From positions 3,049 through 67,048 of the forward strand of contig JACPPH010000002.1 of assembly GCA_016191105.1 (NCBI GenBank): a stretch of 64,000 bases of DNA, given 5' to 3'. The first letter of the stretch is position 1; each line of letters begins with the position of its first letter. A program made the position numbers. Source of the DNA: Candidatus Saccharimonadota bacterium. GTDB lineage: Bacteria > Patescibacteriota > Saccharimonadia > CAILAD01 > BJGX01. Positions 53,001 through 64,000 of this stretch are shown here, piece after piece.

Positions 53001-56000
53001 GAAGCGAGCAACATCCATTCCAGAACGGGGAATGCAGCTGAGCTTGCCGGGACCTAGCAGGCCACCGGCGTTGCATTCGTCGAACCTGGGGCAGTTCTGG
53101 TGCCCACGTTCTGTTGCTTGCTCGCGGGTACGGACGGTCGGATCGCGCAGCCAGTGTGAGTCTTGGCACACGCTGGCATTCTTGATAAGTTGAAGATCAC
53201 GCATGGCGTCCTCCTGGGTGGGTGCTGATAGGTCGACAAGAATTTACCATAATTATCACTGTTTTAAAAGTTCAAGAGGAATTAGTATTTGTTATGCTTG
53301 GGTTTTGTCACACTGGTGTGCAAGAATAACCTTGATCTCAACCAAAACGACGACAGAAACGAGAAGATCATGGACATCAAGAGATGGGCCGCTTCGGTCT
53401 ACAACAACAACGGCACACCTGGACTAAAGGTTGTGATTGAGGGCTTGTGCCCTTTCTGCGAGCTCGGTATGCAGGCCGTGCATGCAGGCAGCCTCGGTCC
53501 CGACAATGTGAAGCGGATGGGCCTGTTCGCCAACTCGGCAGTTGCTGACTTGTCGCGAGCGCGCAAGTGTGGGAACTGCGGCATTCTGTTCGGTCTTCCC
53601 GACAACGAGGAGGAATGGCTGAAAAGCGACTTCCTGGAGGATCTGACAACCGAGGGCGCAGAAGGGGCGGTTGCCAAGTTCGAACCGACGATTCGGGAGG
53701 TGCCCGGTCATGACTCTGCCCAAGGCACGGACCACATCAACCGACACTGGGATGTCGATGAGAAGCTTGAGTTGGAGATCAGGGTCGCTGGCCGTGACTG
53801 GCCACCCAGGTAGGCGTTGGGCCGGGTCCTTCGGGACTCGGCCTACCGCCGGAAATTTAGCAATTATTTACGTTTGTCACACCGCTTAGTTATACTTAAG
53901 TTATGATATCTGCAATTATCGCCATGGCTCACAACCGGGTAATCGGCAAAGACAACGACTTTGCTTGGCACCTACGAGGCGACATGATTAACTTTAGCAA
54001 GCTTACTACCGGCAATACCGTGGTAATGGGCCGTAATACCTATGAGCACTTGCTTAAGCGGATCGGTAAGATTTTGCCCAACCGCACTAATATAGTAATT
54101 ACCCGCAACAAAGACTTTAAAGGACCGGGCACGGTAGTGGTTAACTCGCTTGAGGAAGCTTTAAAAAAAGCTCCCAGTAAAGATGTGTTTGTAATTGGCG
54201 GAGCCCAGATTTTTGCGCTGAGCCTGCCGATTCTAGACCGCATTTATCTAACCGAGGTTGATGCCGAAGTCGAGGGCGACGCTTTTCTGCCAGAGATCGA
54301 TCCGAGCAGGTTTAAAGAGGTTTCGCGTGAGGCTCACAAGAAAGATGAGCGTAATGATTACGACTACTCTTTTGTGGTGCTAGACAGGGTAAAATAATGT
54401 ACCAAAAAGCCCTACCACGAGCGCTGCAAGCCTATGGCATACAGTACAGCAATCTTTTGCCGGCCCAAAAAGGTTATCGCAATGAGTCTTACCCCGTGTT
54501 ACTTAAAGACAAAGCCAAAACCATTAACTTGATTTTTTACAAGCGCGACTCAGACATACTAGAGCGCATAAAAAACGCCAACCGGGTTTCGGAATTTGTG
54601 GCCGACAGCGGCATGCCAGCGCGCCAGCGAGCCGACGAGCGGATCTTGACTCTACACTGGGCCAACGGGGTTGGCTATGTGGCAGTTTACAATTACTTGC
54701 CCGGTCAGACAATCCCGTGGGAGGCCTATACCCAAAAGCATCTCAAGCTGCTGGGCAAAACTATGAGTGACATGCATTCCGTGCTAAGCAAGTTAGATCA
54801 AGACAAGCTACCCAACGTGGCCGAAGAGTGCATGAGCTTGCTAGAGAGAATGAATGCATATTTTGAGTCGAGCGATGTTGCTCGGGCTATGCAAAGCAAA
54901 CTTCAGCTATCCATCGACTTGAGTGTACTTACAAAGCTCAAAAAAGTAATCGATGCTGCCAGCATGCTACCAGCTCAGCAGCCCTTGCACATGGATTTTG
55001 TGCGCAGCAACATTTTATTTAATACCGAAGGTGGCGAGCTAAAAGTTACCGGCATAATAGACTTCGAGAAAGCTGCTTTTGGACACCCAGTTTTTGATGT
55101 TGCCCGCACTTTAGCCTTTTTGCTGGTTGACTGTAAATATAAAGATGCCATTAAGGCCAGAAAGTACTTTCTGTATTCTGGCTATGCTAAACGCGGGGCA
55201 GCCAAGCTAGCTCAGGTGCATGTAAAATACGATGGCCAGTCGCATAACCTGCGTGAGGAGTTGGTTAAATTCTTCTTGATCCACGACTTTTACAAATTCT
55301 TGCGACACAACCCGTATGAGTTCTTGGCGCAAAACGAACACTTTGTACGCACCCAAGAAATTTTGCTACAATTGAATGTGATAAACTACTGTAGTCAACG
55401 TAGTGGAGGAGGGGAGATGACCGACTGGAAAAAGCGCCTTGTATCACAAAGCGACCTAATAGACTTACACGATAAATTAAAAGAAAAAGATAAGAAAATC
55501 GTCTTCACAGCTGGCTCGTGGGATCTAATTCATGCTGGCCAGTGTAGGTATTTGGAGCGGGCGAAAGCCGACGGCGATGTTTTGGTGGCAGGCGTGAGTA
55601 GCAACGAGGCCATACGCAAAGTTAAGGGTGCTAACAAGCCAATTCTAGATGAGAAGATAAGAGCCGAAATGTTGACTTTCTTGCGCTCTGTCGATTTTGT
55701 AACGATTTTGCCCGAACCAAGTTGTGCACCAAGCTTAGCCATGCTTAAACCCGACGTTTACATAACGGTTAAAGAAGACTGGACCAAGAACTACAAAGAA
55801 TCCAAAGAATACAAGATAGTTACCCGCTACGGTGGCAAGGTCAAGGTGGTGCCGCGCCAGTCAACGGCGCTATCGACCACCTCGATTGTACAGCGCGCCA
55901 TTGGCGGGCACTTGGGCGATGTGTTCAAAGACTTTATGACCTTGCGCAAAGACCCACTAAAAGAAAAGAAATGACTCCCGCCGAACGCAAAAAACAAGAA

Positions 56001-62000: not shown

Positions 62001-64000
62001 GGTGCTATGAAGCCTGAACCTGGAGCATTCTTAAGACTTGCTCACGATTTGAGTGTTGATATTCGTGAGCTAGTTTTTATCGATGATAATGATAAGCCGT
62101 TAGAAACTGCCGAAGAAGTTGGTTTTAAGCCAATATTGTTTGAGAATTTTAACCAGCTCAAGAGTGTTCTCCAGGATCTAAATCTGTTGACCTAACTGGT
62201 CTAATCTGATAAAATAGTTCTCGATTACCAAAGACTGTAGCTTCCGCCGGCTGGCGGATTAATTTGCTACAAGAGGTTACAAAATCTTAAATAGATTTTC
62301 AAACTATGAGTCTTTGGAGTTTCCAAAGATTTTTTGTTTGGTAATCAAAAAGCACATTAAATAACAATTCTAAAGGAGGCTCATGGCAAAGACCAGAGAG
62401 CAAAAAGAAGCCGATGTAAAAGCATTGAGCGAAGCCTTTGATTCATGCAAAATTGCAGTTTTGACCGACTACCGAGGCCTAGACGTGCCTGCCATAAGCG
62501 ATCTGCGTGGCAAGTTGCGCGAAGGCGAGGTTGGCTACAAAGTGGCCAAAAACACCTTAGTTAAGATCGCTGTTGCCGGCAGCCAGCTAAAAGATGTTGA
62601 TACTAGCATTTTTACTGGCCCTATGGCGATCGCTTTTGGTCAAGACGAAGCCCAAACCTGCAAAATTATTGCAGATTTTACCAAAGACAACGAAGCTTTG
62701 GAGATCTTGGGCGCAATCGATGAATCTGGTAAAACACTTAGCCGCGAAGAAGTCTTGGCTCTTGCCAAACTACCTAGCCGCGAAGTACTTATCGCTTTAA
62801 CGGTTGGCACCATTGCCGCACCACTCAGTGGATTCGCTCGCGTTCTTAATGCAAATATTACTCAACTTCTGTATGCATTAAATGCAATACAAGAAAAGAA
62901 AGGAGCCTAAAATGGCCGAAGAAGAAAATAAAGAAGAAGTAAAAGAAGAGACTGCTGCTCCTGAGCAGGAGAGCAAAGAGGAAAAGAAAGAAGTGCCTGC
63001 CAAGTTCAAAGGTTTGGTCGATCAGATTTCTGAACTTAGCGTGCTCGATCTAGCCGAGCTAGTTAAGGTGCTCGAAGATCACTTTGGTGTTAGTGCTGCT
63101 GCTCCAGCAGCCGTAGCTGTTGCTGGCGGTGCTGCCGGTGGTGGTGAAGCCGAAGCAACTGAGGAAAAAGCTAATTACAACATTATGCTTACTGCAGCAG
63201 GTGAAAAGAAAATCGACGTAATTAAGGCCGTACGTGAAGTATCGGGTCTTGGTTTGGCTGAGAGTAAGGCCATCGTTGATGGCGCACCCAAGGTTGTTAA
63301 AGAAGGTGTTCCAACCGAAGAAGCCAAAGAGGCTCAAAAGAAGCTCGAAGAAGCCGGCGCAACAGTTGAACTTCAGTAAATATTGTCATCCTGAGCATAG
63401 TCGAAGGATCTCATCAAAAAAGACCCTAATGGGTCTTTTTTTGTTTATAATTAAGGTCATGGCAGGAATAGTTACCCATATAGCACTATCAGATAAAGTG
63501 TTTAAAAACAATTTTTCGAATTTCAATCTCGAGGAATTTGTTCTAGGAACAAGCTTTGCAGACATCCGATATTTGGGCGTGATTGATCGTAACAAAACGC
63601 ACTACAAAAACATTTCGATGCAGGCCATTAAAGAAAGTAACAATTCGTTTACTGCAGGCTTGATGTTTCATTCGCTTGTAGATGAGGTTCGAGAGAATTA
63701 CATTAGATCTCACGAGATCTATAACAAATTGCCTAGGTCAGACTATGTTTCTCAAGCTATGAAGTTCTGTGAAGATATCGACATATATTCAGAATGTAGC
63801 AATTGGGGCAAATATACTGACTACTTTGATAGTTTTTCTGTGAGTGAAGAAAACTACGGGATTAGAAAAAAAGACCTGCTAGAATGGCATAAGATAGTGC
63901 AGCAAGCAATTATCAGTAAACCCAACCTCCAGGTTGTAAAACAGATTGTTCTGAAGTTTACACTAAGCCCCGAAGCCGTTGATGAAATACTTTCAGTTGC

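Follow-up and report, generated by a model that had tools for sequence, protein, structure and literature searches.

In E. coli the ribosomal protein genes rplKA and rplJL form separate autoregulated operons. Saccharibacteria are not known to make nucleotides de novo, and the balancing of their deoxynucleoside triphosphate (dNTP) pools is poorly understood. Synteny and co-occurrence of thyA and folA, the genes for thymidylate synthase and dihydrofolate reductase (DHFR), have been documented across 1445 bacterial genomes, and folA, glyA and folD are widespread in genomes of the Candidate Phyla Radiation (CPR) (PMC11974145). In the cultured saccharibacterium Southlakia epibionticum ML1, the genes SEML1_0406-0415 run in the order L7/L12, L10, hypothetical, Tmk, Dcd, DHFR, ThyA, two hypotheticals and L1 (Wang et al. 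2023, PMC10633639 supplement), and tRNA-Pro with two other genes separates L11 from L1 (SEML1_0406-0421, PMC10633639). The DNA analyzed here, referred to as the window, is a 64,000-nucleotide stretch of a Candidatus Saccharimonadota bacterium (assembly GCA_016191105.1, contig JACPPH010000002.1, positions 3,049 to 67,048, forward strand). Its rplA and rplJ genes are 9.85 kb apart, and the genes between them encode DHFR, an APH-fold kinase joined to a cytidylyltransferase-like nucleotidyltransferase (CT), a HIT-family protein, a long protein of the deoxycytidylate (dCMP) deaminase type, ThyA, a GT4 (GT-B) glycosyltransferase, serine hydroxymethyltransferase (SHMT, glyA), an HD-type phosphohydrolase and a HAD hydrolase. 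With a probability of roughly 0.75, this stretch, including the units and the function proposed for it below, represents an ancestral, lineage-wide "pyrimidine deoxynucleotide island" of Saccharibacteria at the rplKA/rplJL boundary.

The rplA-rplJ interval across Saccharibacteria

Gene identities are based on Pfam and NCBIfam scans of the window and on its open reading frame (ORF) list, and all coordinates are those of the whole 64-kb stretch. A sequence-only reading of the window had described nine genes, folA to HAD, as a complete thymidylate-cycle and nucleotide-salvage cluster. All nine are present where that reading placed them (ORF list; Pfam scan), but the cluster has to be redrawn: judged by gene order in relatives, glyA, HD and HAD fall outside the conserved core, and two additional ORFs of 60% and 59% GC, gcX and gcY, lie in the interval upstream of its supposed start.

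The history of the arrangement was traced by a kinase-profile scan of one genome per GTDB species. The DNA 10 kb to either side of the kinase was fetched, giving 80 loci (L001-L080), and all window proteins were mapped onto these; L081-L083 are three closer relatives. All 24 loci in which both ribosomal flanks are visible have the core, consisting of kinase, CT, HIT, deaminase, thyA and GT4, between rplA and rplJ, and in 40 others it lies beside the single visible ribosomal flank. The remaining 16 of the 80 loci show no ribosomal gene; 11 of these are short contigs. In none of the 80 is rplA adjacent to rplJ, nor does it directly precede the rplJ leader in the window; the gap in 22 relatives is 6.1-13.9 kb (median 8.5 kb). 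Relatives with an intact rplKAJL and the cluster elsewhere, the pattern that would have reduced the finding to a local rearrangement, did not appear in this comparison. Since the same core occupies the same interval in 24 of 24 two-flank loci, the clustering, on the synteny evidence, is not due to chance.

Within the interval the order of genes is flexible. The kinase shares the strand of rplA in 27 loci and has the other orientation in 20, and in many loci it is the thyA/GT4 pair that adjoins rplA. The kinase, CT and HIT genes are contiguous in 61 of 75 loci, and in 40 of 58 loci thyA has GT4 as its convergent neighbor. The folA gene is present in relatives but its position within the interval shifts. 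glyA is inside the interval only in the close relatives L081-L083, although L024 and L069 have it near the core; HD recurs only in L038, L039 and L047; and neither HAD nor gcY has a counterpart in any other locus examined. The relatives' interval also holds a Tmk+ThyX fusion (34 loci), Tmk alone, a dCTP-deaminase-like protein (DCD), a T4-type deoxynucleoside monophosphate (dNMP) kinase, Nudix and dUTPase, along with an M20 peptidase and an MprF-C-like protein. Because these other families are almost all pyrimidine-deoxynucleotide enzymes, the interval is best read as a deoxynucleotide island whose core is stable and whose other slots change their content. The nucleotide theme of the sequence-only reading is strengthened by these additional enzymes. 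The Tmk-ThyX fusion is ~650 aa long with Tmk N-terminal and ThyX/Thy1 C-terminal; it is found in L029 (7376-9415, reverse strand) and in 33 other loci, from genomes that also have ThyA.

The turnover is clearest among the closest genomes. L081-L083 reproduce the window gene order exactly, glyA included, and differ from it in two slots only. The slot 3' of rplA holds gcX and gcY in the window, gcX alone in L082, Nudix and dUTPase/DCD in L083, and three other genes in L081. The slot 3' of glyA holds HD and HAD in the window, and a peptide deformylase or small ORFs in L081-L083. The two ORFs that fill the first slot in the window, gcX (52605-53204, reverse strand, a 199-aa Cys-rich ORF of 60% GC) and gcY (53370-53813, forward strand, 147 aa, 59% GC), have no match in Pfam, NCBIfam, PHROGs, PADLOC or a phage tblastn search. 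A gcX homologue, 65% identical and of 62% GC, occupies the same site in L082, the closest relative, and gcY is absent from L081-L083. In a metagenome scan the C-terminal 40 aa of gcX (CRCPxLQVGDFCPVHGG) matched small ORFs on soil contigs of 67-69% GC with uninformative neighbors. The gcX/gcY cassette (52605-53813) is probably foreign DNA, recently acquired in a slot that turns over, and the source of gcX may be a high-GC, perhaps actinobacterial, donor.

Such uptake raises the question of whether the whole block is foreign, having entered an intact rplKAJL in this genome or its immediate ancestors. The sequence-only reading had offered a further insertion event as one explanation, and three facts would be in its favor: rplKAJL is contiguous in most bacteria, the interval does take foreign DNA (gcX/gcY have ~60% GC in a 46% GC genome), and the slots 3' of rplA and 3' of glyA vary even among close relatives. 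However, the GC content of the core is native (45.4% for the cluster vs 46.4% for the window), and ORF and family scans, which did not include a repeat search, found no integrase, transposase or tRNA at the interval borders. Furthermore, dozens of species with an rplA just ~49% identical to that of the window (median identities across the loci are 49% for rplA and 38% for rplJ) carry the core in this very interval, and a reduced form is present in Southlakia. Recent insertion is contradicted by this lineage-wide sharing and is largely refuted. Because it is common to the lineage (24 of 24 two-flank loci, distant relatives, the reduced form in Southlakia), the arrangement is, by comparative synteny, an old, ancestral trait of the Saccharibacteria (class Saccharimonadia).

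Predicted transcription units at the operon boundary

The genes of the region would fall into six units. The first is rplKA, preceded on the forward strand by secE (50331-50525; Pfam SecE E 1e-15) and nusG (50522-51061; Pfam NusG E 3e-30) and consisting of rplK (51074-51508, forward; Pfam Ribosomal_L11) and rplA (51570-52529, forward; Pfam Ribosomal_L1, match to residues 116-304 only). It would end at a strong bidirectional terminator-like hairpin (52546-52585) located directly 3' of rplA, between the convergent rplA and gcX, with a perfect stem of 14+3 bp. The predicted energy is -26.1 kcal/mol (z -3.4) on the forward strand, where the U-tract is weak (GUUUG). The reverse strand has a U-run after the hairpin, with a predicted energy of -30.5 kcal/mol (z -6.4). 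The second unit would be the gcX/gcY cassette, with a GC-rich hairpin of ~-31 kcal/mol (53814-53849) 3' of gcY.

The third would be a tightly overlapping operon of folA, kinase-CT, HIT, long deaminase and thyA, in which all junctions overlap by 1-20 nt. A promoter-like site, TTTACG-18-TATACT (53867-53896, forward strand, 9/12 match in a consensus scan), ends 7 nt upstream of the ATG of folA, a gene with no visible Shine-Dalgarno sequence in front of it. The fourth, on the reverse strand, would comprise a 33-codon ORF and GT4. The fifth would consist of glyA, HD and HAD, which overlap in the same manner. Divergent promoter-like sites (59668-59735, consensus scan) are present for the small ORF and GT4 on the reverse strand and for glyA on the forward strand; the -10 element of the latter ends 12 nt before the ATG (59708-59747 region). 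The folA and glyA mRNAs may be leaderless or nearly so. Two genes have alternative starts (59708 or 59747 for glyA, 56467 or 56485 for the deaminase), and the ATGs at 59747 and 56485 are likely the true ones, because the proteins then equal their orthologues in length.

The sixth unit would be rplJL, with its own promoter-like site and an L10 autoregulatory leader. The promoter-like site, TTGACC-17-TAAAAT (62187-62215, forward), matches the consensus at 10/12 positions and has an extended TG. The leader element (62210-62345, forward, 136 nt) folds at -42 kcal/mol (z -5.1) with a hairpin and U-run at its end (62308-62332); it matches Rfam RF00557 end-to-end at 38.1 bits (E 0.003), which is under the gathering score of 44. 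In 5 of 7 relatives the orthologous position scores 45.7-58 bits against the same model, above the gathering score. The sequence-only reading was correct in placing the cluster between rplA and a putative rplJ leader. Downstream are rplJ (62383-62910, forward; Pfam Ribosomal_L10) and rplL (62912-63379, forward; Pfam Ribosomal_L12), the latter followed by a terminator-like hairpin (63416-63441).

Since rplKA and rplJL are separate operons in E. coli, the island would be placed at the boundary between the L11 operon and the L10 operon, not inside an operon. This boundary site and the frequent inversion of the block argue against co-transcription with the ribosomal genes. Co-regulation with ribosome synthesis had been the other explanation suggested from sequence: read-through from rplKA, into rplJL, or both, would let the supply of thymidylate (dTMP) track ribosome synthesis and growth rate. 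The block is on the same strand as rplKA and rplJL in the window and in 27 of 47 loci, and the weak U-tract on the forward strand means that termination after rplA may leak. In the other 20 of the 47 loci, however, the block is inverted relative to rplA, making read-through impossible there. In the window, the reverse-strand gcX and two strong hairpins stand between rplA and folA, GT4 breaks up the forward strand, and rplJ has its own promoter-like site and putative L10 leader. Coupling to ribosome synthesis is improbable on this evidence, which is read instead as separate units marked by the hairpin 3' of rplA, promoter-like sites before folA, glyA and rplJ, and the retained leader-like element. 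The position beside the ribosomal genes would reflect history, a permissive gap between operons that became fixed early in the lineage, rather than shared regulation.

A few other features of the flanks and of the window were observed. The rplA product has a K/E/A-rich N-terminal extension of ~100 aa (51570-51830), and its orthologues are 298-371 aa long compared with ~230 aa for a typical L1. tRNA-Trp is found directly 5' of secE-nusG in many bacteria; the window has a tRNA cluster, Thr-Tyr-Thr on the reverse strand and Trp on the forward strand (19793-20680), ~30 kb upstream of secE. An Rfam DUF3800-IX RNA (25212-25281, reverse strand; 66.9 bits vs a gathering score of 36.8) directly follows the ORF at 24593-25213, inside a stretch of lower GC (37-42%) at ~20-29 kb.

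Predicted enzymes of the island

Four of the enzymes would together form a dTMP cycle. The deaminase would convert dCMP to deoxyuridylate (dUMP), ThyA would methylate dUMP to dTMP with methylene-tetrahydrofolate, DHFR would reduce the resulting dihydrofolate to tetrahydrofolate, and SHMT would regenerate methylene-tetrahydrofolate. For a cell that does not synthesize pyrimidines de novo, such a cycle would be a way of making thymidylate from scavenged cytosine deoxynucleotides. The gene identities proposed earlier, and the closing of the cycle from dCMP by DHFR, ThyA, SHMT and a dCMP-deaminase-type enzyme, hold up by homology and catalytic motifs. FolA (53903-54397, forward; Pfam DHFR_1 E 1e-55) matches PF00186 over its full length (188 bits, profile positions 1-159 of 159) and the NCBIfam type-3 DHFR model at 130 bits. 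GlyA (59708/59747-61006, forward; Pfam SHMT E 3e-112) matches PF00464 at 375.7 bits, with the pyridoxal-phosphate (PLP) lysine motif THKT present in the translation ('TTHKTMRG'). ThyA (57471-58292, forward; Pfam E 4e-107) matches PF00303 at 357.9 bits against a cutoff of 24.3 (residues 11-272). Tmk and further pathway enzymes were not found within the 64-kb window and are encoded elsewhere in this genome.

In a global alignment, ThyA is 50% identical to its E. coli counterpart. In the E. coli enzyme R126 and R127 form an Arg pair, contributed by the partner subunit, that binds the dUMP phosphate. The window protein has K-A at the equivalent residues 134-135 (57870-57875), and the 44 relatives with a readable motif have K-A (24), K-G (19) or R-A (1). 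The residues aligned to E. coli L143, C146, D169 and N177 are all conserved; these positions separate dUMP methylation from the phage dCMP-hydroxymethylase and 5-hydroxy-dCMP-synthase activities (PMC13326640).

These positions decide on a further explanation, phage-type DNA base hypermodification, in which a ThyA homologue makes a non-canonical pyrimidine and a kinase and glycosyltransferase decorate it. The co-occurrence of a thymidylate-synthase family gene with a kinase, a nucleotidyltransferase and a GT-B glycosyltransferase is what such a system would contain, and the GT structures 7FG9 and 5ZE7 are among the matches in phage arabinosyl-5-hydroxycytosine gene clusters described in a 2026 study (PMC13326640). 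But ThyA keeps all dUMP-methylation residues, with none of the diagnostic D/E or N substitutions (criteria of PMC13326640), it is half identical to the E. coli enzyme, and the presence of DHFR and SHMT fits a genuine dTMP cycle. Hypermodification was rejected on the ThyA specificity residues and is hardly credible.

The deaminase (56467/56485-57471, forward) is 328-334 aa long, and the dCMP_cyt_deam_1 match covers only residues 252-305, within the last ~80 residues. AlphaFold2 (AF2) models are confident, with a pLDDT of 93.7 for the whole protein and 94.3 for the N-domain alone. In Foldseek searches the best matches of the C-domain are all dCMP deaminases (T4 Cd, cyanophage, human DCTD and S. 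mutans; E 2e-9 to 3e-7), and the zinc-binding and catalytic motifs HAE (VHAEV) and PCxxC (LPCPAC) align to T4 Cd. Homology and motifs support the prediction of a dCMP-to-dUMP enzyme. The TIGR02571 ComEB equivalog model scores 29.6 bits against a cutoff of 219, and the protein does not have the single-domain architecture of ~150-190 aa.

The extra length is due to an N-domain of 170 aa (56485-57000), which in the AF2 model has a five-strand beta-alpha Rossmann-like fold. Searches of the PDB gave no neighbor at E<1e-3, and there is a weak resemblance to HUP-class nucleotidyltransferases. A profile of this domain retrieved only 71 clusters among 1.84e9 representative proteins. Most full-length members measure 295-350 aa and have the domain at their N-terminus, the remainder being fragments or a HIT fusion, and the ten most divergent full-length members scanned all contain a deaminase domain. 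As far as these profiles reach, the N-terminal Rossmann-like domain is exclusive to the long-deaminase family. A tandem-deaminase origin of the N-domain was considered and rejected: APOBEC3G and CDADC1 aligned over both domains, but with a TM score of ~0.25 and a root-mean-square deviation of ~16 Å, and the fold is Rossmann-like.

The HD and HAD proteins are less well defined. HD (60988-61584, forward) matches Pfam HD_3 (E 3e-28, 99 bits) and the YfbR-like family PF12917 (41 bits vs 25.9), with 28.8 bits against a cutoff of 122 for NCBIfam PRK03826; the HAD-IA hydrolase (61584-62195, forward) matches Pfam Hydrolase at E 1e-13. Both miss all NCBIfam equivalog cutoffs. They are plausibly genome-specific accessories that trim (deoxy)nucleotide pools.

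The kinase and CT occupy a single ORF in the window (54397-55974, forward; APH E 6e-15 and CTP_transf_like E 8e-10), the kinase domain at 54397-55392 (Pfam APH) and the CT at 55417-55974 (Pfam CTP_transf_like). Both domains do lie in one ORF, as reported from sequence, but they are separate genes in all relatives. Every one of 1133 kinase homologues except the window protein is standalone, and the kinase in relatives is a separate gene of ~330 aa. In L082 it ends with TAA TAA, and a 20-nt spacer that includes a Shine-Dalgarno sequence leads to an ATG; stop codons end it in L081 and L083 as well. The window has lost the kinase stop, and the former spacer is read in frame as a linker with Shine-Dalgarno GGAGGAGGGGAG (55393-55416, forward; comparison with L081, L082 and L083), and the internal ATG and Shine-Dalgarno of CT are retained (55390-55419). 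By this comparison the fusion is specific to this genome and arose by stop-codon loss; it may be either a real read-through fusion or an assembly error.

The kinase conserves the HxDxxxxN and DFE motifs with the APH catalytic loop intact, and it matches Choline_kinase and homoserine kinase II more weakly. PDB searches, sequence-based as well as profile-based, gave no useful match, only weak APH hits, and the kinase is without a close characterized relative. The best model for CT is TIGR02199 (rfaE_dom_II), missed at 115.5 bits against a cutoff of 181.5, and its best PDB matches are ethanolamine-phosphate cytidylyltransferase (ECT, 3elb) and 5x9q, followed by choline-phosphate (CCT) and glycerol-3-phosphate (GCT) cytidylyltransferases. 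CT is strongly conserved, with a median identity of 80% across 75 loci vs ~56% for ribosomal protein L11. The signature HxGH reads HAGQ in the window (~55525-55540); 65 of 70 orthologues have HxGQ and 5 have HxGH. A homologue search returned only saccharibacterial orthologues of at least 80% identity, with no distant characterized relatives. For HldC the partner would be a PfkB-type heptose kinase (HldE domain I or HldA); the partner of CT is an APH-fold kinase, and Saccharibacteria are not known to make heptose-containing lipopolysaccharide.

The HIT protein (55971-56504, forward; Pfam HIT E 5e-14) matches PF01230 at 53 bits (cutoff 21.5), with the histidine triad HLHFHTIP. Its closest PDB entries are NitFhit and Ap4A phosphorylase, it has an N-terminal CxxC, and the HxHxHxxP and GKCxFC motifs are conserved in relatives. 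Four architectures occur in relatives: HIT alone, HIT with the long deaminase, HIT with a short canonical dCMP deaminase (at a locus lacking the long deaminase) and HIT with Nudix. Fused genes are found in L003 (11594-12583), L002 (12060-13049), L068 (11619-13193) and L076 (12011-13555). This recurrent pairing is the best clue to the role of the protein and suggests that HIT works with the deaminase. In the proposed module the kinase would phosphorylate a substrate X, which could be a sugar, an amino-alcohol or a nucleoside, CT would make the nucleoside diphosphate conjugate NDP-X, and HIT would cleave a nucleotide conjugate to a nucleoside monophosphate. The output or regulation of this module would be tied to the deaminase, because independent fusions in relatives join HIT to two kinds of dCMP deaminase and to Nudix. 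A defense-system or phage origin of the cluster was also considered and rejected; PADLOC gave only generic HIT and deaminase matches and PHROGs only unknown HIT families.

The GT4 gene (58387-59559, reverse strand; Pfam Glycos_transf_1 E 4e-26) is convergent with thyA. Its best PDB match is 7fg9 (E 8e-45), the glucosylsucrose synthase TeGSS (PMC9909042), followed by the tetrahydrobiopterin glucosyltransferases 5ZER and 9V0L (E 2e-21 to 7e-17). These are the nearest solved relatives of GT4, and both kinds glycosylate small molecules. A pterin or folate acceptor would fit the neighborhood, but this is pure speculation. GT4 is not, as first described, the only reverse-strand gene among those from folA to HAD. 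The 33-codon ORF (59537-59638, reverse) overlaps its start and encodes an acidic 33-aa product (MADKDAQADAYYSEDAPSEEFDLSFLDEDKKAN) with its own Shine-Dalgarno sequence. It is called as a gene in L081-L083, and an ADGYY...DLSFLDED pattern is present beside the GT4 start in 49 of 54 loci. This ORF would encode a micro-protein or else act as a leader for translational coupling.

The kinase, CT, GT4 and perhaps HIT could instead constitute an independent pathway of sugar or amino-alcohol activation that merely shares the interval. This is the main rival of the island reading and a definite possibility, though not the favored one. The kinase would make X-P, the RfaE-II/ECT-like CT would convert it to ADP-X or CDP-X, the GT-B enzyme would transfer X to a small-molecule or envelope acceptor, and HIT or Nudix would hydrolyze surplus NDP-X. 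The families involved are consistent with it: rfaE domain II is the best family of CT (115 bits) and ethanolamine-, choline- and glycerol-3-phosphate cytidylyltransferases and 5x9q its PDB matches, the kinase matches APH and more weakly Choline_kinase and homoserine kinase II, the nearest solved GT4 relatives are small-molecule glucosyltransferases, and NDP-sugars and dinucleoside polyphosphates are commonly cleaved by Nudix and Fhit-type HIT enzymes. The arrangement of the genes speaks against it. The kinase, CT and HIT are interleaved with folA, deaminase and thyA in one overlapping operon and are not grouped with the opposite-strand GT4, two independent architectures join HIT to a dCMP deaminase, and the other variable genes of the interval are almost all deoxynucleotide enzymes. 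Also, CT lacks the canonical HxGH (HxGQ in 65/70) and misses the rfaE cutoff. The sequence-only reading overstated the case for the kinase/nucleotidyltransferase as a nucleotide enzyme, since its nearest families activate sugars or amino-alcohols.

A bolder version of the island reading is also conceivable, although unlikely. The kinase, the HxGQ CT, the Fhit-like HIT and the two-domain deaminase would form an undescribed route of environmental Saccharibacteria, in which scavenged cytosine (deoxy)nucleotides pass through a nucleotide conjugate to dUMP for ThyA. The N-domain of the deaminase would then be a docking or regulatory element, replaced elsewhere by HIT-deaminase fusions.

Weight of the evidence and comparison with known systems

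Several points weigh against the island as proposed. The 80 loci were picked with the kinase as query and are biased to genomes that have the module. The position is not universal: in L057 the core is upstream of secE-nusG, and in L018, L056, L060, L072 and L077 no ribosomal gene lies within ~6-10 kb of it. Promoter and terminator calls are consensus matches from a scan that showed no overall enrichment over shuffled sequences. Stop-codon loss can fuse neighboring genes without functional coupling, as the window kinase-CT illustrates, and the characterized relatives of kinase and CT act on sugars or amino-alcohols, so the module may be unrelated to dTMP synthesis. The cultured Southlakia resembles the window in that the thymidylate genes for Tmk, Dcd, DHFR and ThyA lie between its L10/L12 and L1, but its site is without the APH kinase, CT, HIT, long deaminase and GT4 and has a dCTP-deaminase route instead. 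In transposon sequencing (Tn-seq) of Southlakia in co-culture, ThyA, DHFR, Tmk, Dcd and L1 were non-essential, and L10, L7/L12 and L11 were essential (PMC10633639). By this analogy the island is dispensable when the host supplies thymidine nucleotides. Because the four Southlakia enzymes ThyA, DHFR, Tmk and Dcd are non-essential in co-culture, the island is probably a means of buffering or autonomy that is not strictly required.

The fixed rplA-rplJ thymidylate locus of the relatives examined provides an anchor for comparative and metabolic reconstruction, and it separates a stable core from fast-changing accessory slots. Three uncharacterized core enzymes (kinase, CT and HIT), located beside a deaminase with a private domain, are candidates for lineage-specific metabolism. 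Any inference of essentiality calls for caution, the thymidylate genes at the locus being dispensable in the single cultured relative tested. In the literature, no description was found for Saccharibacteria of the rplA/rplJ thymidylate position, the kinase-CT-HIT module, the two-domain deaminase, the HIT fusions or the small ORF. The thyA-folA linkage and the folate genes of CPR bacteria are already known (PMC11974145), and the locus represents a known type of operon in a lineage-specific form, some parts of which are uncharacterized.

Compared with the rplKAJL-rpoBC cluster of E. coli and B. subtilis, the order secE-nusG-rplK-rplA...rplJ-rplL is the same, an L10-leader-like structured RNA lies 5' of rplJ, and rplKA and rplJL would be separate transcription units, as they are in E. 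coli. The differences are in the spacer between rplA and rplJ, which is 6-14 kb here with 6-12 unrelated genes that are often on the opposite strand, and in the genes after rplL, which are not rpoBC; in relatives an uncharacterized gene of ~175 aa is followed by dnaX and dnaB. The coupling of ThyA and DHFR in one unit is shared with the thyA-folA operons known from bacteria and phages, but here four conserved genes (kinase, CT, HIT and long deaminase) intervene and the whole is one overlapping operon fixed between rplA and rplJ.

The succession of a kinase and a CTP_transf_like nucleotidyltransferase recalls HldE/HldC (RfaE) and the Kennedy pathway of ethanolamine/choline kinase plus ECT/CCT, and the best model of CT (rfaE domain II) and its best structures (ECT, 5x9q, CCT and GCT) come from these systems. 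Unlike HldE/HldC, the kinase has an APH fold and not a PfkB fold, the rfaE cutoff is missed and 65 of 70 orthologues read HxGQ; unlike both, the pair is part of a deoxynucleotide operon with a HIT protein. The deaminase, finally, shares the fold and motifs of its C-terminal 150 aa with the known dCMP deaminases (T4 Cd 1vq2, human DCTD 2w4l, S. mutans 2hvw and ComEB), and differs from all of them in the additional 170-aa N-domain, which has no significant PDB neighbor.

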